Shown one piece after another: positions 2,583-19,898 of a stretch of DNA of 19,900 nucleotides. Source of the stretch: Promethearchaeota archaeon (lineage in GTDB: Archaea > Asgardarchaeota > Lokiarchaeia > Sigyniarchaeales > SOKP01); NCBI GenBank assembly GCA_019058295.1, contig JAHPZI010000027.1, forward strand, positions 15,934-35,833. Reading direction: 5' to 3'. Position 1 is the first letter of the stretch; each line of letters opens with the position of its first letter. A program made the translations under genes and the position numbers. The notes beneath the pieces were generated by a model. The model searched no databases and was not told the origin of the DNA. It was given only the letters and a program-made list of their open reading frames with translations.

Positions 2583-3275
2583 TTGAGATTAATTATCTTT
2601 TATATAGTGATTAGTAATTTTAATATTTTTGTCAAAAAATTAACAAGTTCAGTAATAAATTTATTGAAATTAAATAAATGGCTGATAAATGTAATACCAG
2701 GCATTTTAGTAATCGGATTTTTCTATACTTTTACATTTATTTCACTTGCATTCTATCCATCCCCCTTTAGTCCTGTAAATAATTGGTTAAGCGATTTGGG
2801 AAACTCAAGTCATAATCCAGATGGCGCTTTTTTATATAATCTTGGTTGTATTTTAACTGGAAGCGCATTATTTCCATTTTATCTTGGTATGTACAAATTT
2901 TATAGAGAAGAGATTTATCATAAAATCGCAGTGATTAGTATTCAAATATTAGGGTTTTTTTCTGCATTTGCCTTAATTATGCTTGGGGTGTATTCTCAAG
3001 ATTTTTCAAACTCACATATGATTTGGGCTGGTGCTTTTTTTTGGTTAAATCTATGGGTTTTAATTTCGGCAAATATTGCTTTAATTTTTCATAAAGAGTT
3101 TATAAAACCTATCGCAATTTACGGTTGGAGTGTAGCTGGCATCAATTTTTTATTCGTAATTCTCACTGTATCTATGGTTAACACCCCATTACTCGAATGG
3201 ATTTCAGTTTCATCAGCACTCGGTTATGTGGCATTGATAATTTTCAATATATATAAAAATAGATCAGAGTTTTAA
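2583..3275 (+). CDS. DUF998-like multi-pass membrane protein (true start probably downstream, near 2664)
   Basis: WLSDLG motif after TM1, YNLGCILTG, a conserved His (SHMIWA) and about 6 hydrophobic helices. Paralogous to 15988..16689. Confidence 0.7.
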   Translation: MRLIIFYIVISNFNIFVKKLTSSVINLLKLNKWLINVIPGILVIGFFYTFTFISLAFYPSPFSPVNNWLSDLGNSSHNPDGAFLYNLGCILTGSALFPFYLGMYKFYREEIYHKIAVISIQILGFFSAFALIMLGVYSQDFSNSHMIWAGAFFWLNLWVLISANIALIFHKEFIKPIAIYGWSVAGINFLFVILTVSMVNTPLLEWISVSSALGYVALIIFNIYKNRSEF

Positions 3276-7342: not shown

Positions 7343-10300
7343 TTATTCTCTTCCCAATCGTTCGATCCTTCTTATTTCTTTTATTCGTTTTTTACCTGCG
7401 ATTCTTTTCTTAATAATAATTATCCCTGCTACCGCTGCCCCTCCGGAGACTCCTATTATGGTAAGACCAATAGGGCTTGTTAAAAATTCCACAAGAACAA
7501 AACCTTCCTTAGGTTTTTTCCCATCATCATCGTCATCTCCATCTGTCGGTATTATAGGAAGAAATTGAGATTTAATCACAGTTACATTAGCGAATCCAAT
7601 ATTTCCTACTGTATCATTACAGTAAAAGATAATAGTAATAACTTTTCCATAATCAATAGAATTCCACATTTCTTTCCAATCTTCTTCATCTATCGTATCG
7701 TTTGAAATGAATTGACGATTCTCAGTATAATCAGTTCCATTGAATAATCTGTACCACATTGTATCATTATTTGCCTCAAAAACAATTATGATAAATTTTG
7801 GAGGCGAACTATATACGGATTGATTCACAATAGGCTTGATTATCGTAATCTCTGGAGCTATGATATCTTTTCTTACAATAACTTCTGCCATTCCAATGTA
7901 ACCTAAAGAATCATTCGCAAAAATTCGGATGATGATAGTTCCATTACTCATTTGATTCCAAACAGTCTGATTAACTTTACCATTCCATGTATAATTATCA
8001 GTATAATCCGTGTTATCCGTTCTATTTATGAGCATATACCACTGAGCATCAATACCCCTCACATCCTTAAAAATCACATCGCAATCCGCCAAACCTGGTG
8101 CGGTTGAGTTAAATAGATCATTTGGATCAGGATCATTGATAACTATTAAAGGTCCCAGAATATCCTTCCTAATCGTTGTAGAATTCATCCTCAAATTGCC
8201 GAAGGTATCATTCGCATAGAATTCGATAATGACCGTACCATTCGGACAGTTGTTCCAAGCATTTTGATTAATTTGTCCTGTTCTTTCTAAGCCTATACCG
8301 GGAATAGTGTAATTTATTGACCACTCGGTACCATTCCAGAGCCGATACCATGTATCATCTAAATAAATATCAATAATTGTTAATTTGTATGAAGGAGCCG
8401 TCGCGCTTAATAATTTATTATTTTTAGGCTCAATAATCGTGATATATGGTGCAATAGAATCTTTAGATCTCGATAATCTCCAGAGGTCATTCAAATACCC
8501 AATAACACCTGATTCGGCATAACCATCTCCTCCGAATAACCATAAGTTTCCGTTCGTATCCGTCCAAGAAACAGAATAGGATCTAGCTCCCGGATAATTT
8601 GCTATATCAGGAACTCCCATCGTGCCATATACGCCATATGCATCTGTGGTGTTATTCCCTGACATCCATGCCCACTCCTTTGAAGTGATGTCAAATCTCC
8701 AGAGGTCATTAAAATCCCCACCAAAGAATGAATTCCCACCTCCGAATAACCATAAGTTTCCGTCAGTATCCATCCAAGAAACAGAACCGTCTCTACCTCC
8801 CGGATAATTCGCCATATCAGGAACTCCCATCGTGCCATATACACCATCCTGATTTGTGGTTTTATTCCCAGATATCCACGCCCACTCCTTTGAGGTGATA
8901 TTAAATCTCCAGAGGTCATTTAGCTGCCCACTACCTGATTCGGCACAACCAGAACCTCCGAATAACCATAAATTTCCGTCCATATCAGTCCAAGAAACAG
9001 AACCCCCTCTACCTCCCGGATAATTCGCCATATCAGGAACTCCCTTCGTGCCATATACGCCATATTCACTTGCGGTTTTATTACCTGACATCCACGCCCA
9101 CTCCCTTGAGGAGATGTCAAATCTCCAGAGGTCATTCAATATCCCAGGACCACCTGATTCGGCATAACCAAGACCTCCGAATAACCATAAGTTTCCATCC
9201 GTATCCGTCCAAGAAACAGAAACGAATCTACCTCCTGGACAATTCGTAATATCAGGAACTCCCTTCGTGCCATATACGCCATATTCTACTATGTTTTTAC
9301 CCCCTGACATCCATGCCCATTCCTTTGAGATAATGTCAAATTTCCAGAGGTCATTCAACCACCCAATATTACCTGATTCGTTATAACCCCAACCTCCGAA
9401 TAACCATAAATTTCCGTCCGTATCCGTCCAAGAAACAGAATAATTTCTAGCTCCTGGATGATTTATCACATCAGGAACTCCCTTCATGCCATAAAAACCA
9501 GTTTGATTTGGGATTTTACTCCCTGACATCCACGCCCACTCCTTTGAGGTGATGTTAAATCTCCAGAGGTCATTCAAAGACCCACTACCTATTTCAGCAT
9601 AACCACCTCCTCCGAATAACCAAAAATTTCCGTCCATATCCGTCCAAGAAACAGAACCAAATCTAGCTCCCGGATAATTCGCCATATCAGGAACTCCCCT
9701 CGTGCCATATACACCATTTTGATTTGGGATTTTATTCCCTAACATCCAACTCCAATAATATTTCGGTCCAATATCTTTTCTTACAGTAACTTCTGCCATT
9801 CCAATGTTGCCTAACGAATCATTCGCAAAAATACGGATAATAACAAATCCATTATCCATATAGTCCCAGACGAATTGATCCACCTCGTCATTCCACGTAT
9901 AATTTTCCGTATAGTGATTGCTGTCTGTTGCATTTATAAGCATATACCATTTAGCATCAATACCACTCACATCACTAAAAATTACGTCGCAATCTGCCAA
10001 ACCTGGTGCGGTTAAGGAAAATAATTTATTCGGAGTGGGAGCATTAATAGTTATTAAAGGTCCCAAATTATCTTTTCTCACTAAAACATCATCAGAACCC
10101 ATCAATCCGTTTGTTCTGTTCAAAAAGAATCGAATAATAACCGTCCCATTTTCAAATTGATTCCATAAATTGTATTGAATTTTGTCTTCAATTAATCCAG
10201 GAGTGACGGTCTTAGAATATGTGAAATTGTTGGTATAATCATTACTGTTTGTTCCATTTATGAGCATATACCATATGGTATCTAGGTTATCTCCCAATAC

Positions 10301-12460
10301 TGAAATCGTGAAATTCATAGTATTTTTCCCAAAAATATCATTTAAATCAGGTTGAGTAATAAAAATTAATGGATCTACAATATTTTTCAATACAGTAACT
10401 TCTGCCATTCCAATTTTGCCTAATGAGTCATTCGCAAAAATACGGATGATTACGGTACCATTACCCATTTGATTCCAAGCAGTTTGATTAATTTCACCAT
10501 TCCACGTATAATTCTCCGTATAGTGATTGCTGTCTGTTCCATTTATAAGCATATACCAACGAGCATCAATACCACTTACATCACTAAAAATTACATCGCA
10601 ATCTGCCAAACCTGGTGCGGTTGAGGAAAATATTTCAAATAGAACAGGATCATTAATAGTTATTATAGGACCTAAAATATCCTTCCTAATACTGGTAGAA
10701 TCCACCCTCAAATTACCGTAAGTATCATTCGCATAGAATTCGATAATGACAGTACCATTCGGACAGTTGTTCCAAGCATCTTGATTAATTTGTCCGGTTC
10801 TTTTTGAGACTATTCCCGGAATCGTATAAGTTATTGACCACTCAGTACCATTCCAGAGCCGATACCAAGTATCATTTAAATGAGCATCAATAAAGGTTAA
10901 GTTGTATGAAGGAGCCGTCGCATTAAATAATTTATTAGATCTAGGCTCAATAATCGTGATATATGGAGCAATACAATCTTGAAATCTCCAGAGGTCATTC
11001 ATATTCACCTCAAAACCTGATTCGGCATAAGGATACCCTCCGAATAACCATAAATTTCCGTCCGTATCCATCCAAGAAACAGAACCCGTTCTAGCTCCCG
11101 GATAATTCGCCGTATCAGGAACTCCCTTCGTGCCATATACGCCATATTGATTCAAGGTTTTACTCCCTGACATCCACGCCCACTCCTTTGAGGTGATATC
11201 AAATTTCCAGAGGTCATTCAAATAATCAAAACTTCCTTCGTTAAAACCATAACCTCCGAATAACCATAAATTTCCGTCCGTATCCGTCCAAGAAATAGAA
11301 GCTTCTCTACCTCCCGGATAATTCGCTATATCAGGAACTCCCTTCGTGCCATATACGCCAAAACTCCACATGGTTTTATTTCCTGACATCCACGCCCACT
11401 CCTTTGAGGTGATGCTAAATCTCCAGAGATCATTCAAATACCCACCAAAACCTGATTCGATATAACCACTTCCTCCGAATAACCATAAATTTCCATCCGT
11501 ATCCGTCCAAGAAACAGAAGCGTATCTAGCTCCTGGATAATTCGCTATATCAGGAACTCCCTTCGTGCCATATACGCCGCATTCCTCTGTGGTTTTATTC
11601 CCTGACATCCACGTCCACTCCTTTGAGCTGCTGTTAAATCTCCAGAGGTCATTCAACTCCCCAACACTCCCTGTTTCGTTATAACCATAACCTCCGAATA
11701 ACCATAGATTTCCGTCTGTATCCATCCAAGAAACAGAACTGGATCTACTTCCTGGATAATTCGCCCTATCAGGAACTCCCTTCGTGCCATATACGCCATT
11801 TTGATTTAAGGTTTTATTCCCTGACATCCACGCCCACTCCTTTGAGGTGATATCAAATCTCCAGAGGTCATTCAGCCGCCCATAACCACCTGATTCGGCA
11901 AAACCATAACCTCCGAATAACCATAGATTTTCGTCCGTATCCATCCAAGAAACAGAACCAGATCTGGCTCCCGGATAATTCGCCCTATCAGGAACTTCTT
12001 TCGTGCCATATGTGCCATTTACATTTATGGTTTTATTCCCTGACATCCACGCCCACTCCTTTGAGGTGAGGTTAAATCTCCAGAGGTCATTCAACTGCCC
12101 ATAACCACCTGATTCGGCAAAACCACCTCCTCCGAATAACCAAAAATTTCCGTCCATATCCGTCCAAGAAACAGAACCAGATCTGGCTCCCGGATAATTC
12201 GCCCTATCAGGAACTCCCTTTGTGCCATATATACCATTCTCATCACCAGTTTTGTTCCCTGACATCCATGTCCAATCATAGTTCGCTCCCGCTGCTTTTC
12301 TTGGAGGTTCTAATTTGAAATCATTCCTATCTTCTTCAGTTATTTCATTCTTTATTGCTAGACGTTCTGAATTTCCCAAATTAGGATACTCATTAGTTAT
12401 GATGCTTACTCCTATTAAAAATATCAAAAGCCCCCATAAAAGTACGATTTTTTTATTCAT
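7343..12460 (-). CDS. Large surface glycoprotein: signal peptide, two 6-bladed Kelch-like beta-propellers, seven Ig-like ~100-aa domains, C-terminal TM anchor
   Basis: N-terminal MNKKIVLLW... signal and 12 repeats of W.WMSG...YPG.R...W.D.DGNLWLFGG...LNDLW.F. Also D..(A/G)P.I.I..P...(Y/F)AND..GN domains, many N-x-S/T sequons, a DGDDDDDG linker, a TM helix and a basic tail. Confidence 0.85.
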   Translation of the reverse strand: MNKKIVLLWGLLIFLIGVSIITNEYPNLGNSERLAIKNEITEEDRNDFKLEPPRKAAGANYDWTWMSGNKTGDENGIYGTKGVPDRANYPGARSGSVSWTDMDGNFWLFGGGGFAESGGYGQLNDLWRFNLTSKEWAWMSGNKTINVNGTYGTKEVPDRANYPGARSGSVSWMDTDENLWLFGGYGFAESGGYGRLNDLWRFDITSKEWAWMSGNKTLNQNGVYGTKGVPDRANYPGSRSSSVSWMDTDGNLWLFGGYGYNETGSVGELNDLWRFNSSSKEWTWMSGNKTTEECGVYGTKGVPDIANYPGARYASVSWTDTDGNLWLFGGSGYIESGFGGYLNDLWRFSITSKEWAWMSGNKTMWSFGVYGTKGVPDIANYPGGREASISWTDTDGNLWLFGGYGFNEGSFDYLNDLWKFDITSKEWAWMSGSKTLNQYGVYGTKGVPDTANYPGARTGSVSWMDTDGNLWLFGGYPYAESGFEVNMNDLWRFQDCIAPYITIIEPRSNKLFNATAPSYNLTFIDAHLNDTWYRLWNGTEWSITYTIPGIVSKRTGQINQDAWNNCPNGTVIIEFYANDTYGNLRVDSTSIRKDILGPIITINDPVLFEIFSSTAPGLADCDVIFSDVSGIDARWYMLINGTDSNHYTENYTWNGEINQTAWNQMGNGTVIIRIFANDSLGKIGMAEVTVLKNIVDPLIFITQPDLNDIFGKNTMNFTISVLGDNLDTIWYMLINGTNSNDYTNNFTYSKTVTPGLIEDKIQYNLWNQFENGTVIIRFFLNRTNGLMGSDDVLVRKDNLGPLITINAPTPNKLFSLTAPGLADCDVIFSDVSGIDAKWYMLINATDSNHYTENYTWNDEVDQFVWDYMDNGFVIIRIFANDSLGNIGMAEVTVRKDIGPKYYWSWMLGNKIPNQNGVYGTRGVPDMANYPGARFGSVSWTDMDGNFWLFGGGGYAEIGSGSLNDLWRFNITSKEWAWMSGSKIPNQTGFYGMKGVPDVINHPGARNYSVSWTDTDGNLWLFGGWGYNESGNIGWLNDLWKFDIISKEWAWMSGGKNIVEYGVYGTKGVPDITNCPGGRFVSVSWTDTDGNLWLFGGLGYAESGGPGILNDLWRFDISSREWAWMSGNKTASEYGVYGTKGVPDMANYPGGRGGSVSWTDMDGNLWLFGGSGCAESGSGQLNDLWRFNITSKEWAWISGNKTTNQDGVYGTMGVPDMANYPGGRDGSVSWMDTDGNLWLFGGGNSFFGGDFNDLWRFDITSKEWAWMSGNNTTDAYGVYGTMGVPDIANYPGARSYSVSWTDTNGNLWLFGGDGYAESGVIGYLNDLWRLSRSKDSIAPYITIIEPKNNKLLSATAPSYKLTIIDIYLDDTWYRLWNGTEWSINYTIPGIGLERTGQINQNAWNNCPNGTVIIEFYANDTFGNLRMNSTTIRKDILGPLIVINDPDPNDLFNSTAPGLADCDVIFKDVRGIDAQWYMLINRTDNTDYTDNYTWNGKVNQTVWNQMSNGTIIIRIFANDSLGYIGMAEVIVRKDIIAPEITIIKPIVNQSVYSSPPKFIIIVFEANNDTMWYRLFNGTDYTENRQFISNDTIDEEDWKEMWNSIDYGKVITIIFYCNDTVGNIGFANVTVIKSQFLPIIPTDGDDDDDGKKPKEGFVLVEFLTSPIGLTIIGVSGGAAVAGIIIIKKRIAGKKRIKEIRRIERLGRE
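8474..9754 (-). repeat. Intragenic tandem repeat array 2 (6 units, 210-219 bp)
   Basis: The equivalent anchor recurs at 9741, 9525, 9306, 9087, 8871 and 8661. Confidence 0.95.
10982..12274 (-). repeat. Intragenic tandem repeat array 1 (6 units, 216-219 bp)
   Basis: The GACATCCA anchor recurs at 12261, 12042, 11823, 11604, 11385 and 11169. Confidence 0.95.
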
Positions 12461-12751: not shown

Positions 12752-13042
12752 GTGGTTAACTTGAAAAATAAATTTATTATTATGAACAGAGAAGATAATT
12801 GTGCTACTGCTTTAGCGACAATTTCTAAAGATGCTGAAATAGAAATAAATGGTACTCGTATTAAATTAAATGAAGATATTGAAATTGGTCATAAAATCAC
12901 CTTAAAGGATCTTAAAAAAGGAGATTTAATACTAAAATATGGAGAAATTATTGGAATTGCGATAATAGATATAAAAGCAGGGGATTGGATTCATACACAT
13001 AATATAAAAAGCCATTATTTGGAGAAGATAAAAAATGACTGA
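12752..13042 (+). CDS. UxaA-family dehydratase small subunit (SAF domain)
   Basis: DNCATAL, GHKITL.D...G..I.KYGE.IG and G.WIHTHN motifs. Overlaps the next gene by 8 nt (ATGACTGA). Confidence 0.88.
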   Translation: MVNLKNKFIIMNREDNCATALATISKDAEIEINGTRIKLNEDIEIGHKITLKDLKKGDLILKYGEIIGIAIIDIKAGDWIHTHNIKSHYLEKIKND

Positions 13043-14219
13043 GGAATTTATGGGATTTCCACGGCCAAAAGGACAAGTGGGTATTAGAAACAAAATTGTT
13101 ATCTTGCCCAGTGTTGTTTGCGTTAATCACGTTGCTCAACAAATTGCAAAAAAAGTTGAAAATTCTGTTGCAATAACTCATCCTCTTGGATGTGGGCAAT
13201 TTGGACATGATTTTAATTATACAATTAAAACTTTGGCAGGTTTAGCAACAAATCCAAATGTATTTGGAGTAATAGTTATTGGACTTGGCTGTGAGAATCT
13301 TACAAGTAAGAAGTTAGCAAGACAAATAAAGAGAGCAAAAAAACCAGTAGAATTTTATGATGTACAAGAAATTAATGGTGGAACAATAGGCGCTATTGAA
13401 AAAGGAGTGGAAATTGGAAAAAAAATGCGAGAAGAGAGTGCGGAACTAAAGAGAGAACCTTTTGATTTTTCCAACTTGATTTTAGGATTAGAATGTGGTG
13501 GATCTGATTCAATTTCAGGAATAACTGCAAATCCTGCAGTTGGAATTGTTTCAGATAAAATTGTAAGCCTTGGAGGTACATCAATTCTTCCAGAGTTTAC
13601 TGAATGGATTGGTACTGAACATTTATTAATGAAAAGAGCAGTGGATCAGAATGTTGCAGATAAAATTCATTCTGTTATGAATTCATTTCTTGACAGTACG
13701 ATGAAGATTGGCATTGATTTCCGAGGAGTTCAACCAACTCCAGGAAATATTGCGGGAGGGTTAACAACTATTGAGGAAAAATCTTTGGGTACAATAGCAA
13801 AAGCAGGAAAGGTACCAATCCAAGGAGTGTTAGAATATTCTGAAGCACCAAAGAAAAAAGGATTATGGTTAATGTTTGAACCTGGGTTAGATGTAGAATC
13901 CATGACAGGACTAGCAGCAGCAGGAGCTCAAGTAATCATTATGACAACTGGAAGAGGGAGCCCTACGGGTAATCCAGTTTCACCAGTTATTAAGATCTGC
14001 GGAAATCCAAAAACATGTGATTGGATGAAATGCAATATTGATGTGGATGCGAGCAGTATTATCACAGAAAATAAAAGTGTAGATGATATAGCCCAAATTT
14101 TAGGGAAAAAATTAATTGATGTTTGTAATGGAGAACAAACTCAAGCAGAGGTTTTAGGGTTTGAGGATATCGCGATATGGAGGGTTATGAATTTTCCCTT
14201 TTCTGCGTTTAAAATATGA
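13035..14219 (+). CDS. UxaA/GarD/SuyB-family dehydratase large subunit
   Basis: G.VGIRN, SVVC, HPLGCGQ, NPNV, GLGCE, LECGGSD..SG.TANP, PTPGN..GGLTTIEEKSLG, TTGRG and DVDAS motifs. Confidence 0.92.
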   Translation: MTEEFMGFPRPKGQVGIRNKIVILPSVVCVNHVAQQIAKKVENSVAITHPLGCGQFGHDFNYTIKTLAGLATNPNVFGVIVIGLGCENLTSKKLARQIKRAKKPVEFYDVQEINGGTIGAIEKGVEIGKKMREESAELKREPFDFSNLILGLECGGSDSISGITANPAVGIVSDKIVSLGGTSILPEFTEWIGTEHLLMKRAVDQNVADKIHSVMNSFLDSTMKIGIDFRGVQPTPGNIAGGLTTIEEKSLGTIAKAGKVPIQGVLEYSEAPKKKGLWLMFEPGLDVESMTGLAAAGAQVIIMTTGRGSPTGNPVSPVIKICGNPKTCDWMKCNIDVDASSIITENKSVDDIAQILGKKLIDVCNGEQTQAEVLGFEDIAIWRVMNFPFSAFKI

Positions 14220-14316: not shown

Positions 14317-15969
14317 ATGGAAACTTCAAGGAATATATCCCAGACTATACTTTCATTTTTATTAGTATCTATTGGAATGATGACAACAATAACCTTTGGA
14401 TTCGTGCCACTTCTTAATTATTTTGAAAAATATATGACTGTATTGTATGCATTATTCTTTTGGGCACCTATGGGCTTATCTTGTTTAATTTTTGGTAAAT
14501 TAAAACTCATTGATAGAGTAAAAAAGAAGGAATTTTTTTGTTTTTCTTACATAATCTGGGGAATTCTAGTTTTGATTCTTAATTTTTCAAGCTCAAATAT
14601 GATTTTATCGATTATTCTTGTAATTATTTTGGGTTCACTGACGGCGATAAATGTAATCAGTGGAGCAAATTATATAAGCGCCAATGTTCCTATTAATCGA
14701 AGAGGATTTACAGCAGGAATTTTTCTTGGAATCGGGTGGGGTCTTGTTGCCTTAACAGCTTATATATCTTTCATAGATTTACATATTAACTTTATTATTT
14801 TGGCTGTTTCAAATATTATGGTTGGATTCATTAGCTTTCTACTTATTAATTCAGGAAAAGTAGAAATAATGTGGAAACAGATGTTTTCGATACCGAGAGA
14901 TTACAATGTACGTAAAAATATGATGATTTTTTGGTTAAGTTCATTAGTTTTTTCTACCTTTTTAGGAATCATTGTATTTTTACTAGGAACTACAATGAGA
15001 TTTGATGAATCTTTAGAATCATTCTATCTCGAAAATTTTATTTATTATTTTGAAACTGCAGAATCATATAATTTAGGTCTTGTAAACTTTGATTTCATCG
15101 CAGTCGGAGCTATGAATTTAATTTTGAGCCCAATTCTAGGTCGTTTAATGGATAAATTTGGACGTAAACCTATTTATTTTCTTTCAAATCTTCTTATTCC
15201 AGGATGTTTGATATTATTAGCTTTTTGGAGATCCTTTGAGGTTATTGTTATTACTTTAGTTATATATTCTATGATATGTGCGAGTTATGTTATAATAGAA
15301 TGTACTGTTTGGTCTGATTTAGCTCAAGAAGATAATATTGGACAATTTAATGGTTTAGGATGGAGTTCAATGGGATTAGGTGGAGCACTCGGATTTTTAA
15401 TGGGATATATAATTACAACGCCGGCATTCCTCGCGCAAATTGATCTGTTGGTTGTTATGACAATTATCGGATTAAGTGAAATCTCGATGATACCATTCAT
15501 CTCTATGCGTGATTCTTTACCTCCTGCAGAGGAAATGGAATGGCAAAAAGAGATTTTACACATATATGTGATTGCTGAAGGAGGAATTGTTATGTCTGAT
15601 TTTTCCTTTTTAAAATGGCGAGAGAAAAAAGATCCCTTAATACAAAGAAAAACAGAAGAATTTGATCCTAATCTGTTTAGCGGCGGGATCTCTGGTGTGA
15701 GTACAATGCTGAGAGAAATGATTGATTCTCAACAATCTAAATTGAAAGTTATAGACCATGAAGATAAAAAGTTAATATTTGAATATGGAAAAGGATTTAC
15801 CTCTGTTTTAATCTCATCTAAAGATCTTAAAATCCTCCGAAATAAACTAAAAACTTTAACTGAGGAAATTCAAAATGTTTTCTCGGAACAAATAGAACAC
15901 TGGGATGGAGACCTAGACAAATTTTTACCGGTAAAAACAATGATTAAAAACCGTTTCGAAATAAATTAA
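14317..15969 (+). CDS. MFS transporter with C-terminal longin-like domain
   Basis: About 12 TM helices, MFS motif A GRLMDKFGRKP and RRGFTAG. The last ~140 aa (from ~15541) are soluble with a beta-beta-alpha-beta-beta-beta-alpha-alpha pattern and WDGD. An RBS-like GAGGT lies at 14302-14306. Confidence 0.8.
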   Translation: METSRNISQTILSFLLVSIGMMTTITFGFVPLLNYFEKYMTVLYALFFWAPMGLSCLIFGKLKLIDRVKKKEFFCFSYIIWGILVLILNFSSSNMILSIILVIILGSLTAINVISGANYISANVPINRRGFTAGIFLGIGWGLVALTAYISFIDLHINFIILAVSNIMVGFISFLLINSGKVEIMWKQMFSIPRDYNVRKNMMIFWLSSLVFSTFLGIIVFLLGTTMRFDESLESFYLENFIYYFETAESYNLGLVNFDFIAVGAMNLILSPILGRLMDKFGRKPIYFLSNLLIPGCLILLAFWRSFEVIVITLVIYSMICASYVIIECTVWSDLAQEDNIGQFNGLGWSSMGLGGALGFLMGYIITTPAFLAQIDLLVVMTIIGLSEISMIPFISMRDSLPPAEEMEWQKEILHIYVIAEGGIVMSDFSFLKWREKKDPLIQRKTEEFDPNLFSGGISGVSTMLREMIDSQQSKLKVIDHEDKKLIFEYGKGFTSVLISSKDLKILRNKLKTLTEEIQNVFSEQIEHWDGDLDKFLPVKTMIKNRFEIN

Positions 15970-15987: not shown

Positions 15988-16689
15988 GTGAGTTCGGTAA
16001 AAATAGAGAAAGTTGTAAACACTCTAAAATCGCTCCCAATTCCAAGAAAATGGCCAATCAGTGTCGTTTCTGGGATAATAGTAATTAGTGTATTTTGGAG
16101 TTTTACTATCATATCAATACTTTTTTTCCCTACGACATATAATCCTTTTGTAAACTGGGTTTCTGATCTAGGATCTCATTCAAAAAATCCAAAAGGTTCC
16201 GTCTTTTTTAATATTGGATGTATAATATCAGGAATTGCTATGTTCCCATTCTTTGCGGGGCTCTATGAGTGGTATATAGGGGGTCGAAGAAATAAAATAC
16301 TTACAATATTAACTCAAGTAGCAGGGTTCTATACTGCATTGGCAATGATGATGGTAGGAGTATTTCCAGATGATTATTTGGAAATACATATTTTTTGGTC
16401 TATGAGTTTATTTACGATAACCGTTTTAACTTTTTTTTTACCTTCCTATGCATTATATAAATTTAAATTCACAAGAAACATTGCTATATTCGGTTTTATT
16501 GCCACTATCATTAATTTAATCCTCTGGTTTTGTATAATTCCTATTATGGAATGGATAACAATCTTGGTATGCTTTCTTTTTATTGGAGCAATAATTCAGA
16601 GTATGCAGAAACGAATTGAAAGATTACGGTTTGTCCGACATCAACATATAGAATTACCAAAAAAGAGAAAAAAGAAAAAAAGAAAATAA
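15988..16689 (+). CDS. DUF998-like multi-pass membrane protein with polybasic C-terminus
   Basis: WVSDLG, FNIGCIISG and IHIFWS motifs, ending KKRKKKKRK. GTG start with AGGAG at 15974-15978. Confidence 0.75.
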   Translation: MSSVKIEKVVNTLKSLPIPRKWPISVVSGIIVISVFWSFTIISILFFPTTYNPFVNWVSDLGSHSKNPKGSVFFNIGCIISGIAMFPFFAGLYEWYIGGRRNKILTILTQVAGFYTALAMMMVGVFPDDYLEIHIFWSMSLFTITVLTFFLPSYALYKFKFTRNIAIFGFIATIINLILWFCIIPIMEWITILVCFLFIGAIIQSMQKRIERLRFVRHQHIELPKKRKKKKRK

Positions 16690-16727: not shown

Positions 16728-17117
16728 CTATTTGAGGAATTTTTGAAGTTTCTCTTTAAACTCATTAAAAAAAGTGACATCTCCATCCCAAGATATAATT
16801 GCATTGATATCGTATAATCCTTCGAAGATTTCCACTATATTTTTAGATAGTTTTTGAATCTTTTTATCTTTAATTTTAGAATCAGTTCTAAAAACAAGAA
16901 TAGCATTACCATCATGCGACTTTCCGAAACTTAGCTTATCATTTTCTAACATTAAACTTTGTAAACCCTTACTTGTAAGTTGTTGAGAAAAGGTTTTAAT
17001 GGCTGACACTATCCCCCCCATAAGTGTTTTATCTAAGGTTTGCTCGTCGCCACTAAATTCCGCTATTGGAAGCCCATCCTTTGAAAAAAGCCAAAATTGT
17101 TTAATAATTGACGGCAA
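16728..17117 (-). CDS. Stand-alone longin-like domain protein
   Basis: IKQFWLFSKDGLPIAEF...LMGGIVSAIKTFSQQL...LQSLMLE.DKLSF...AILVFRT...IVEIFE...WDGD..FF, the same pattern as the MFS C-terminal domain. TTG start. Confidence 0.75.
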   Translation of the reverse strand: MPSIIKQFWLFSKDGLPIAEFSGDEQTLDKTLMGGIVSAIKTFSQQLTSKGLQSLMLENDKLSFGKSHDGNAILVFRTDSKIKDKKIQKLSKNIVEIFEGLYDINAIISWDGDVTFFNEFKEKLQKFLK

Positions 17118-17201: not shown

Positions 17202-19898
17202 TTAAATAGGTAACTTAATTATGAAATTGCTCCCTAATCCTCTCCCTTGAGATTCAACCCAAATTTTGCCGCCATGTAAATCTATAATTTCTTTTGAAAT
17301 AAAGAGGCCTAACCCTGAGCCTGTTATATCTATATATTCAAGTCCTTCTTCTTCATTTCTTTCAATTTTACAGAATCTTGTGAAAATTATGGCCATCTCT
17401 TCCTTAGTTAAACCTACTCCTGTATCGGCTACAGTTATTTTAGCCCAATTATTATCTTTTTGTAAACTTATAGATATTTTACCTTGAGGTGGTGTGTTTT
17501 TAATGGCATTCGACAAAAGGTTTGTAATTACTTGATTAATTCTCATAGGATCTATCTCTAAATAAACACTGTCTGGAATCTCAAGATTAAGCGTGATATC
17601 TCTATTTTTAATTAAAAAGTTCATATCAGCTGAACATTCTTTTATTATCTCGCTTAAATTGCTTTTTTGTTTTTCCAATGAGAGCATCCCATATTCTAGT
17701 CGAGATAAGTCAAGCAATTTGTTAATTAACGATTTTAATCGTCGACCCCCCCTGTCAATCATCCTTATTATCTCATTAATTCCCTTATCTAATAATTTGT
17801 CTTCATATTCATCTAAAAGAAGCTCTGTCCCTCCACATACTGGAATTAAGGGGGTTTTAAGCTCATGCGATACTCTAATAATTAGATTTTTTCTAATTTG
17901 ATCTAATTCTTTTAATTTTTTAATTTCTTCTTTAACTAGGGCCTCGGCGTTCTTACGCTCAGTAACATCATTCATAAGCAATTGCAAATATTTTTTTTCA
18001 CCGATTTTAACAAGTGATGATTGTAAATTTACCCATATCAAGTGACCCTCTTTATGGTAGATTTGTATATCTAAACGATGTAAGTCTTTTCCTTCAAAGA
18101 ATTGTTTGAAAAGATGATCTGTCATTTCTATGTATTTAGGCTCAATTGCTGAGAGATTTCTATAGTTTCTGCCGATTAATTCTTGTTTTTTATATCCAGT
18201 TATTCTTTCAGTTGCGGGATTACAATCAGCAATTATACCCTCAGGATTTATTAAAAGTATAGAACTAGGCGTATTCTCAAAAAGAAAGCGAAATTTTTGT
18301 TCAGATCGTTCTAAAGTTTGTTCAAAACTCTTACGTTCTGTTATATCTTGTACTAAGATTTGTATTAGGGTTTCTTTTTCTATTTTTATTAAAGAACAAC
18401 GTAAACTTAGCCATATAACATCTCCAATTTTCCTATACACTGGAAATTCAAACGACTCTTTGGTTTCCCCTTTCATTATTATTTTGGAAATTTTTTCGAA
18501 TATCGGAAAAAGATGTCTGTTTTTATTTGTTATTGAAAGAATTTCTCTGAAATTTTTTCCAATTATATCTTCTCTAGATTCTAAAGAGAGTATGTCATTT
18601 ACAGCATTATTTAAATCTATAATATTTCCTTTCAGATCTAATAATCCTATGATATATGGAGAACTCTCAAATAAATGCCGATATTTTTCTACTGATTCTT
18701 TTAATTTCTGTTCTAATCTGTATTTTTCGGTGATGTCCACAAATGTACCTTCAATTTCTTTGGGCTTCCCTTCATTATCATAAATCATATGAGCATTTAT
18801 TTCTATATTTATTTTTTCTCCATTTACTTTTTTTACTTGAATAATAAAATTCTTAATGAATCCTTGATTTATTAATCGTTCATAATAGATTTCTCGGTCT
18901 TCGGGATTACTGAAGAACTGAAACGCCTCTGAGCCAATTAAATTTTTGGAAGGATCAATTCCAAGGATTTCATTTAAGGCAGGATTTTGCATTAATAATT
19001 TTCCTTTAAATTCACCCTTATAGAAACCAACATCTAAATTATTAATCATATTACGATAATTCTCTTCAGATTCTCTTAATTTTTGCTCTGCATTTATTCT
19101 TTCTGTAATATCCTCTGTATGAACTAATACCAAGTCTGGAGGGATATAACTATATTTCACTAAAAGATCTTTTTCTTCTTTTAATATGTTGATATAATAT
19201 TTCATCTCACGAGTAATATTGATTTTCTTTTCAAAACACCTATGCATATCTTTTAAGATATCCGGTCGATCTTTATACATCTCAGAAGCTTTAAATCCTA
19301 AATAATTTTCCACATCTCCAAGAGTACTTTTTTCCGCAGCATTATTATAATTAATTAATTTGAAATCATTTCCTACTTGTTGCCATGTATATGTTGGAAC
19401 TGGCCCACCTTTAAAAAGTGCTTTAAATTTCTCTTCTGATTCTTTTAATTTTTGTTCTGCTTTTTTACGGTCTGTGATTTCTCTTGAAATCGTTAATATT
19501 TTCAAATTTCCTTCATTATCAAAATACATTTTACTTTTAATATCCATCCAGATCCAAGTTCCATTTTTATGTTTAAATCTTAATTCACGATTGTAAAATC
19601 CTTCTTTTCGAAGTTTAATTACGTATTTACTCATGTGTTTAGAATCATCTGGATGGATAAAATTTCCCGGGAATTTTCCAATCATATCATCTTTTGAATA
19701 TCCTAATATTCTTAAATGAGTTGATTCGTTAATATATTCGATCTGAACTTTATCATTAAGAACGCGGATTAAATCATTAGCTGTTTCCGTAATTATACGA
19801 TAATTTTCTTCTGAATCTTTTAATTTTTGTTCTGCTTTCTTACGGTCTGTGATTTCTCTTGAAATCGTTAATATTTTCCAATTTCCTTCATTATCAAC
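17202..19898 (-). CDS. Multi-PAS sensor histidine kinase (5' end outside window)
   Basis: The frame stays open past 19685 to the window edge (VDNEGNWKILTISREITDRKK...). Five complete PAS/PAC modules plus part of a sixth precede the H-box SHELKTPL, N-box NLLSNAIK, G1 DTGVG and G2 GSGLGL. No TM segment is visible within the window. Confidence 0.93.
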   Translation of the reverse strand, partial: VDNEGNWKILTISREITDRKKAEQKLKDSEENYRIITETANDLIRVLNDKVQIEYINESTHLRILGYSKDDMIGKFPGNFIHPDDSKHMSKYVIKLRKEGFYNRELRFKHKNGTWIWMDIKSKMYFDNEGNLKILTISREITDRKKAEQKLKESEEKFKALFKGGPVPTYTWQQVGNDFKLINYNNAAEKSTLGDVENYLGFKASEMYKDRPDILKDMHRCFEKKINITREMKYYINILKEEKDLLVKYSYIPPDLVLVHTEDITERINAEQKLRESEENYRNMINNLDVGFYKGEFKGKLLMQNPALNEILGIDPSKNLIGSEAFQFFSNPEDREIYYERLINQGFIKNFIIQVKKVNGEKINIEINAHMIYDNEGKPKEIEGTFVDITEKYRLEQKLKESVEKYRHLFESSPYIIGLLDLKGNIIDLNNAVNDILSLESREDIIGKNFREILSITNKNRHLFPIFEKISKIIMKGETKESFEFPVYRKIGDVIWLSLRCSLIKIEKETLIQILVQDITERKSFEQTLERSEQKFRFLFENTPSSILLINPEGIIADCNPATERITGYKKQELIGRNYRNLSAIEPKYIEMTDHLFKQFFEGKDLHRLDIQIYHKEGHLIWVNLQSSLVKIGEKKYLQLLMNDVTERKNAEALVKEEIKKLKELDQIRKNLIIRVSHELKTPLIPVCGGTELLLDEYEDKLLDKGINEIIRMIDRGGRRLKSLINKLLDLSRLEYGMLSLEKQKSNLSEIIKECSADMNFLIKNRDITLNLEIPDSVYLEIDPMRINQVITNLLSNAIKNTPPQGKISISLQKDNNWAKITVADTGVGLTKEEMAIIFTRFCKIERNEEEGLEYIDITGSGLGLFISKEIIDLHGGKIWVESQGRGLGSNFIIKLPI
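19432..19897 (-). repeat. Near-identical 91-bp direct repeats (19432-19522 and 19807-19897), 375-bp period, within the kinase PAS array
   Basis: 3 mismatches in 91 bp by manual alignment. Both copies encode DNEGN(L/W)KILTISREITDRKKAEQKLK(E/D)SE. Confidence 0.9.

Follow-up and report, generated by a model that had tools for sequence, protein, structure and literature searches.

We analyzed a 19,900-nucleotide (nt) stretch of contig JAHPZI010000027.1 from a Promethearchaeota archaeon of the Lokiarchaeia (assembly GCA_019058295.1, positions 15,934 to 35,833; hereafter the window), in which a single open reading frame (ORF) on the forward strand encodes a major facilitator superfamily (MFS) transporter that continues in frame into a C-terminal domain predicted to adopt a longin fold. 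This 550-residue protein, termed P0001, and its parts are located in the window as follows, with the evidence for each given on the same line.

14317..15969 (+): whole ORF of the MFS-longin fusion protein P0001, 550 amino acids (aa) plus stop, ATG start; about 30 full-length orthologs
14317..15492 (+): MFS body, residues 1-392, with twelve predicted transmembrane (TM) helices and an N-in/C-in topology; Pfam MFS_1, hydropathy and positive-inside count
14494..14529 (+): TM2-3 loop with the motif-A-like sequence GKLKLIDRVKKK; G60 and D66 invariant in the ortholog alignment
15139..15171 (+): TM8-9 loop with the canonical MFS motif A, GRLMDKFGRKP; G275, D279, G282, R283 and K284 invariant in the ortholog alignment
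15493..15552 (+): linker next to the membrane, residues 393-412, containing the invariant SLPPAEEMEW; alignments and AlphaFold2 (AF2) model
15553..15960 (+): longin domain, residues 413-548, modeled as β1-β2-α1-β3-β4-β5-α2-α3; AF2, VIA-align and Foldseek
15610..15666 (+): sub-clade-specific insert between β2 and α1, residues 432-450, LKWREKKDPLIQRKTEEFD; ortholog alignment

P0001 contains a complete MFS carrier body

The carrier body of P0001 matches Pfam MFS_1 (PF07690) with an E-value of 8e-15 and 55 bits, well above the curated cut-off of 33.4. Twelve helices are predicted in two six-helix halves from hydropathy and from the secondary-structure string of a single-sequence AF2 model of the full-length protein; this model is of low confidence (predicted local distance difference test, pLDDT, of 38), and only its secondary-structure string was used. 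Together with motif A, the threshold match and the twelve TM helices place P0001 in the MFS, in agreement with the original prediction of a complete 12-TM carrier running in frame into a further domain. The predicted inside loops contain 12 Lys and Arg residues and the outside loops 3; by this count, both termini, and hence the longin tail, are predicted to be cytoplasmic.

It had also been proposed that motif A in the N-terminal half is degenerate, and that this is compatible with a partly sensory role. The deviation exists, yet it is mild: the TM2-3 loop carries a Lys at the second Gly position of the motif A consensus G-x-x-x-D-[RK]-x-G-[RK]-[RK] and a two-residue insertion that is limited to its own sub-clade in the ortholog alignment, while G60 and D66 are invariant and the C-terminal-half motif GRLMDKFGRKP is textbook. 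A departure of this size says little about sensing and is a weak argument for a sensor. Among NCBIfam models, the body gives weak subfamily matches of DHA1/Tet type only, and none to sugar-acid porter models, including those of the ACS family (ExuT/GudP/GarP). The MFS body would be a working-type secondary carrier with weak DHA1/Tet-like affinities.

The cytoplasmic tail is predicted to be a longin domain

The tail (residues 400-550) was modeled with AF2 using an alignment of 66 diverse family members collected by an exhaustive profile search. The resulting model has a pLDDT of 90.3 and a predicted template modeling score (pTM) of 0.84. Specifically, it comprises strands at residues 14-21 and 26-31, a helix at 52-70, strands at 79-82, 85-92 and 95-101, and helices at 106-128 and 134-148 (tail numbering), giving the order β1-β2-(short insert helix)-α1-β3-β4-β5-α2-α3, which is the longin order. 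The short helix after β2 corresponds to the insert at residues 432-450, which is missing from most orthologs and shows the lowest conservation and a lower pLDDT. The linker is modeled as short helical turns packed on the longin domain (pLDDT 89-96). TM12 is separated from the folded part of the tail by approximately 10 free residues.

The tail model was compared by VIA-align with 48,161 solved chains and, separately, searched with Foldseek. The best VIA-align match is the first longin domain (LD1) of Fuzzy (7q3d_C; Z 12.4, root-mean-square deviation (rmsd) 2.8 over 124 residues), followed by VAMP7 (4afi_B, Z 11.9), Sec22 (3egd_C, Z 11.6) and 2dmw (Z 11.4), and the leading longin matches superimpose with an rmsd of 2.3-3.6 over 113-124 residues. 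Other matches of the longin class include Mon1-Ccz1, the N-terminal domains of adaptor protein (AP) sigma and mu subunits, TRAPP subunits and SRX. All 50 of the best VIA-align matches are longin or roadblock structures, as are all 50 of the Foldseek matches shown, 41 of which have E-values of 1e-3 or better. The fold that had been proposed from the order of secondary-structure elements is thus borne out by structure prediction and structure search.

Longin and roadblock folds share a core, and two features separate the tail from the latter. Its α3 helix is covered by longin structures only, whereas roadblocks (Z 8.4-10.6) reach approximately residue 125-129; moreover, the Roadblock/LC7 family (PF03259) has a helix before β1, in place of which the tail has only short turns. 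The presence of α3 and of only short N-terminal turns indicates that the tail is of longin rather than roadblock type.

At the level of sequence, the tail stays below the thresholds of the curated longin families (Pfam Fuz_longin_1, Intu_longin_1, Sybindin and Longin), the best of them, Fuz_longin_1, scoring 14 bits where 26.1 would be required. None of the 66 tail-family members passes a Pfam gathering threshold; the only families recurring below threshold among them are Sybindin (9 members), Fuz_longin_1 (9) and Intu_longin_1 (4). Searching the PDB sequences with tail profiles returned chance or very weak matches only, namely de novo helical proteins, Trs23 (E 0.03) and the dynein roadblock (E 0.18). 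The tail is therefore, as judged from its model, a longin domain by fold that lies outside any curated sequence family. A complex predicted for two copies of the tail, in a calculation run without controls, scored 0.17 against a mark of 0.42, which speaks neither for nor against a homodimer.

The MFS-longin fusion is conserved

About 30 full-length orthologs, annotated merely as "MFS transporter" or "hypothetical protein", align with P0001 end to end at 46-86% identity, and all of them carry the fusion. They derive from metagenome-assembled genomes (MAGs) of Lokiarchaeota/Promethearchaeota, Helarchaeota and Hodarchaeota. The junction between the MFS body and the tail is bridged without insertions or deletions by contigs from independent sediment and soil metagenomes (three studies), which, together with the fusion in the orthologs, excludes an assembly artefact. 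Conservation is higher in the tail than in the carrier, with a mean pairwise identity of 60% versus 51% and a higher identity in 95% of ortholog pairs, and the linker SLPPAEEMEW is the most conserved stretch of P0001. The MFS-longin fusion is therefore real and under selection.

One MFS-longin ortholog (L017, DATKTP010000267.1), 51% identical, lies in a MAG labeled Candidatus Deferrimicrobium, a bacterium, on a contig that probably comes from an Asgard archaeon and was binned wrongly.

The tail belongs to a large Asgard family found on many membrane scaffolds

The tail profile matches 2109 clusters (at 50% identity) with E-values of 1e-3 or better, 652 of them at 1e-10 or better, and no Pfam model exists for this family of more than 2000 clusters. 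Every match with a named source is from an Asgard archaeon. In a sample of 151 genomes of the phylum, 148 have the domain, typically in 5-27 copies, and it occurs in 35 ORFs of the present genome. The best 150 clusters are mostly membrane proteins, of which some have approximately 350-370 aa with 5-8 predicted helices followed by the tail, and others approximately 500-630 aa with 10-14 helices and the tail; 8 of 10 tested clusters of the latter kind match Pfam MFS_1, and the MFS lineage of P0001 itself is found in only a few of the 150. The remaining architectures comprise single-pass receptors with the tail behind the TM helix, short soluble forms and PAS-HisKA-HATPase kinases. In the ~7-TM proteins of approximately 355 aa, the tail is the sole cytoplasmic domain. 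When architectures are mapped on the tail phylogeny, 18 label changes are counted against approximately 57 for shuffled labels, with at least 11 forced and with fragments blurring the labels.

Two histidine kinases (G000:C21:134325-136160, L003; G000:C25:44371-48828, L005) have the order PAS-HisKA-HATPase and then a C-terminal longin tail after the ATPase.

A second MFS-longin gene of this genome (contig C28) is unlinked to the first, and its product is 24% identical. In other genera of the same taxonomic family, MFS-longin genes occur as tandem pairs (G049:C5:74163-77681, L055; G099:C297, L056). Identities of 24-28% rule out that these pairs are the orthologs of P0001 and its C28 paralog; judged by sequence, they form a separate lineage.

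Across the 66 diverse members, seven positions are near-invariant (E406, W409, G423, L453, K510, G531 and F547), two of which, E406 and W409, lie in the linker and are kept whatever the membrane scaffold. No conserved Asp, His or Ser, and hence no catalytic-type or phospho-acceptor residue, is found among these members, which fits an interaction module better than an enzyme or a phospho-acceptor.

Two other roles of the tail are to be weighed against these patterns. In the first, the tail is an input, that is, a cis-regulatory gate that folds onto the cytoplasmic face of the carrier or binds a metabolite. C-terminal CBS, USP and TrkA_C domains regulate other prokaryotic transporters, and the short invariant linker would hold the domain at the cytoplasmic face. 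A dedicated protein partner would not be needed, and indeed the neighborhoods show no conserved partner gene. The longin/roadblock fold also falls into the broad profilin-like group that includes the ligand-binding PAS and GAF domains. Set against this, 7-TM, kinase, single-pass and free-standing forms keep the domain and its E..W linker motif to the same degree, which argues against a carrier-specific plug; PAS and GAF structures are absent from the 50 best structural matches, and no conserved polar pocket residues are seen across the 66 members. We regard a cis-acting gate as unlikely.

In the second, the tail is an oligomerization or sorting tag, which pairs longin-tailed proteins with one another or is read by a positioning machinery, for example at the protrusions of Lokiarchaeia, much as coat adaptors read the longins of VAMP7 and Sec22. 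That one tail family is common to many unrelated membrane proteins, that these two longins are among the top structural matches (Z 11.5-11.9), and that ~7-TM-longin genes and, in other genera, MFS-longin genes stand in tandem pairs would all fit such a role. But the P0001 gene stands alone, its sole MFS-bodied paralog being the unlinked, distant C28 gene, and neither the histidine-kinase nor the soluble members of the family need sorting. Furthermore, we know of no coat or adaptor system that acts on the Asgard plasma membrane. A sorting or pairing tag appears rather improbable to us.

The adjacent dehydratase genes are a local feature

Four further genes of the window form the context of the fusion gene.

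12752..13042 (+): small subunit, with a SAF domain, of a UxaA/GarD-type dehydratase; Pfam SAF E 5e-8, N-terminal part of TIGR03248
13035..14219 (+): large subunit of this enzyme, with GD_AH domains; Pfam GD_AH_C E 3e-92, GD_AH_second E 7e-41
15988..16689 (+): polytopic membrane protein of 233 aa, encoded 19 nt after the end of the MFS-longin gene; without a match in Pfam or NCBIfam
16728..17117 (-): free-standing 129-aa longin-family member P0002, convergent with the MFS-longin unit

As originally described, the MFS-longin gene lies directly downstream of the UxaA-family dehydratase pair (12752-14219); the genes are co-oriented, with a gap of 97 nt. From this position one could read P0001 as a sugar-acid (hexuronate/aldarate-type) transceptor that serves the adjacent dehydratase and reports substrate flux directly to a small GTPase through the longin tail, in the manner of SLC38A9 and Ragulator. 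The whole local arrangement recurs in an 82%-identical relative, the MFS-longin gene is the only transporter gene beside the dehydratase here, and the genome is rich in small GTPases. In that relative, however, the dehydratase pair has a Sugar_tr MFS gene of its own directly upstream, which gave no match in the present, 79%-complete genome by a single query, a result that is not evidence of its absence. The corresponding place (L012:2690-6404, three small genes plus Sugar_tr) is filled here by the gene of a 1705-aa Kelch-like repeat surface protein (7343-12460, -).

Beyond this relative, the linkage is lost. Among 10 ortholog contexts, the dehydratase genes accompany the fusion in the 82%-identical relative only, and all examined orthologs at 68% identity or less lie in unrelated contexts (beta-lactamase-fold and Ser/Thr-kinase genes, a YdjM-like gene, Nre, translation genes). 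The tie to sugar-acid metabolism is thus at best a local one of recent origin. With a carrier body whose weak matches are to DHA1/Tet-type rather than sugar-acid porters, and with no GTPase gene within 10 kb, a functional tie to the dehydratase is not supported, and we consider a sugar-acid transceptor highly improbable.

In the closest relative as well, the gene of the 233-aa membrane protein adjoins that of the MFS-longin fusion; a paralog of the former lies at 2583-3275 (+) in the window (34% identity, E 1e-44), likewise without a Pfam or NCBIfam match. P0002 is matched by the tail in BLASTP (E 6e-6), by the hidden Markov model of the tail family (E 2e-12) and by Intu_longin_1 (E 3e-3); it also reaches Pfam Robl_LC7 (E 6e-5) with 23.1 bits against a cut-off of 23. 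Its gene lies 84 nt downstream of that of a multi-PAS histidine kinase (17202-19898, -), at the spot where a response regulator might be expected. This arrangement of kinase and free longin is kept in the 82%-identical relative (L012) and in no other ortholog context examined.

Relation to known longin, roadblock and transceptor systems

In eukaryotes, longins either pair up into platforms on which small GTPases dock (Mon1-Ccz1, TRAPP, Fuzzy-Inturned) or act as adaptor-binding sorting modules (VAMP7, Sec22). The tail of P0001 resembles the former over the whole domain (Z 10.2-12.4, 123-137 residues), specifically LD1 of Fuzzy, Mon1 and HPS1 (7q3d, 9rs6, 5ldd) and the TRAPP subunits Bet5/TRAPPC1 and Trs23/TRAPPC4 (3cue, 7b6d), whereas the longins of GATOR1, which the original prediction had also cited, match less well (Z 9.1) than those of Fuzzy, VAMP7 or TRAPP. 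Unlike the longins of the guanine nucleotide exchange factor (GEF) type, P0001 has a single longin, covalently attached to a 12-TM carrier; it does not have the makeup of a tri-longin Rab GEF (Mon1-Ccz1, Fuzzy-Inturned, HPS1-HPS4), an obligate heterodimer that binds a Rab-type GTPase and has three tandem longins in each subunit, and no partner or GTPase gene lies nearby. With the longin SNAREs VAMP7, Sec22 and Ykt6 (4afi, 2vx8, 3egd, 2dmw; Z 11.4-11.9) it shares a longin on a membrane-anchored protein. In those SNAREs, however, the longin is N-terminal, ahead of a SNARE motif and a single TM helix, while P0001 has its longin after a polytopic carrier, at the C-terminus, and lacks a SNARE motif.

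The Roadblock/LC7-MglB proteins (MglA/MglB, 3t1r and 6hjm; Prometheoarchaeum, 9jue and 7yh1) have a related core fold (Z 8.4-10.6, residues ~9-129) and differ from the tail by a long N-terminal helix and the lack of α3. In Streptomyces conservons, a membrane kinase, a roadblock protein and a GTPase work together, which offers a prokaryotic precedent for teamwork of a sensor, a roadblock and a GTPase. The components of the conservons, like MglA and MglB, are encoded by separate genes of an operon, unlike the P0001 fusion.

P0001 also recalls the transceptors and transporter-like sensors, among them Snf3/Rgt2 of yeast, MFS proteins with long signaling C-terminal tails, UhpC of E. coli and human SLC38A9, which docks to a platform of roadblock/longin type that controls the Rag GTPases (SLC38A9-Ragulator-Rag). 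In each case a solute-carrier body bears a cytoplasmic extension, which in P0001 is a candidate recruiter of signaling proteins. In contrast to these systems, whose tails are disordered or are short motifs that bind a separate platform, P0001 would carry the platform-type fold itself, as far as sequence and model tell.

Within the Asgard archaea, fusions of an "NPRL2-like longin" to two-component signaling domains (Liu et al., bioRxiv 10.1101/2020.10.19.343400) and fusions of longin or roadblock domains to GTPases (Tran et al. 2024, PMC10933270) have been reported. In line with these reports, the present genome has kinases that end in the tail family and one longin-GTPase fusion. The text of neither paper contains a transporter-longin or 7TM-longin architecture, and our literature search, which covered sources other than the supplementary asCOG tables of Liu et al. 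2021, found no description of an MFS-longin or 7TM-longin architecture; an asCOG covering the tail family may already exist. Longin shuffling in Asgard archaea is thus already published, and P0001 adds to it a Lokiarchaeia-type MFS-longin orthogroup.

The tail may dock soluble partners at the membrane

In the reading that we prefer, to which we give an even chance, P0001 is a genuine carrier whose own longin module lies close to the membrane, serves for docking and links it to soluble partners. TM12 would continue via the short invariant linker into a longin domain held near the inner face of the membrane, and this domain would dock a soluble partner, which could be a further longin/roadblock protein or a member of the set of approximately 60 small GTPases of the genome. 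Through the docked partner, the state of the carrier would be read out, or the carrier would be controlled or positioned. The analysis itself shows the ORF and its topology, the fold, and the family with its architectures, conservation and phyletic range; that a partner docks, which partner it is and in which direction information flows are what we infer. A signaling or adaptor role of the tail is reasonable, because the same tail stands at the positions of output modules on ~7-TM proteins, single-pass receptors and histidine kinases. Since it is the only cytoplasmic domain on receptor-like proteins, an output or adaptor role is favored.

Several genomic associations are consistent with GTPases as partners of the family. 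The present genome has about 60-62 small-GTPase ORFs, and among 30 loci from 13 genera, nearly all have their 7TM-longin genes in a conserved tandem pair; 10 of the 30 have a small-GTPase ORF no more than 1.5 kb away, which in 6 of these comes directly downstream on the same strand. At the locus of the present genome (G000:C21:179503-182454, L025), for example, a 383-aa and a 362-aa ~7-TM-longin protein are encoded in tandem, with a same-strand ORF for a 189-aa Ras/Arf-type GTPase after them. This circumstantial evidence that the tail family works with GTPases is not evidence on the MFS member.

Two further loci combine the tail family with a GTPase. At G000:C1:79231-82263, a gene for a single-pass receptor-like longin protein has an Arf-like GTPase gene 100 nt downstream. 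At G000:C16:30135-31019, a 294-aa fusion joins an N-terminal longin of the tail family to a GTPase domain.

A number of observations weigh against a docking module. For P0001 itself, the closest GTPase ORF is 10 kb away, and among its ten ortholog neighborhoods a GTPase lies within 8 kb in only one (at 7.4 kb); beyond that, these neighborhoods hold a single free longin, that of the close relative, and another gene with a longin tail, and they share no partner gene. Genome-wide, a GTPase lies no more than 1 kb from 5 of the 35 longin ORFs, compared with 5.8% of the other ORFs (p ~0.05), an excess that is marginal and comes from loci that are not independent. Fold-level look-alikes of the tail occur outside the Asgard archaea, in Thermoplasmatota, including behind a receiver domain, and in bacterial OmpA-family proteins, so that the fold alone is no signature of GTPase interaction; sharing a fold does not in itself demonstrate the same function. 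The original proposal that transport is wired to longin/GTPase signaling therefore keeps its structural half, a predicted cytoplasmic longin of a kind that sits at output-module positions, but not a GTPase link specific to P0001. Likewise, the survey of fusions and neighborhoods that it called for yielded a fusion kept in all orthologs but no common partner.

More broadly, membrane-tethered longin tails could be the receptor-side docking sites of an Asgard small-GTPase network, a proposal that we hold to be speculative and, on present evidence, doubtful. Equally tentative is its more specific form, in which carriers, ~7-TM and single-pass receptors and kinases would all use this one built-in module, probably in pairs, to bring Rab/Rag/Arf-like GTPases to the membrane or activate them there. 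If this were true, the MFS-longin proteins would represent a prokaryotic forerunner of transporter-to-GTPase nutrient signaling of the SLC38A9-Ragulator-Rag type, and the 7TM-longin pairs would be forerunners of the coupling of receptors to G proteins. Asgard genomes encode dozens of small GTPases and longin/roadblock proteins, and the longin modules on transporters, receptor-like proteins and kinases offer concrete, clonable bait for the search for partners and may help to answer whether eukaryote-style coupling of membrane proteins to GTPases predates endomembranes.

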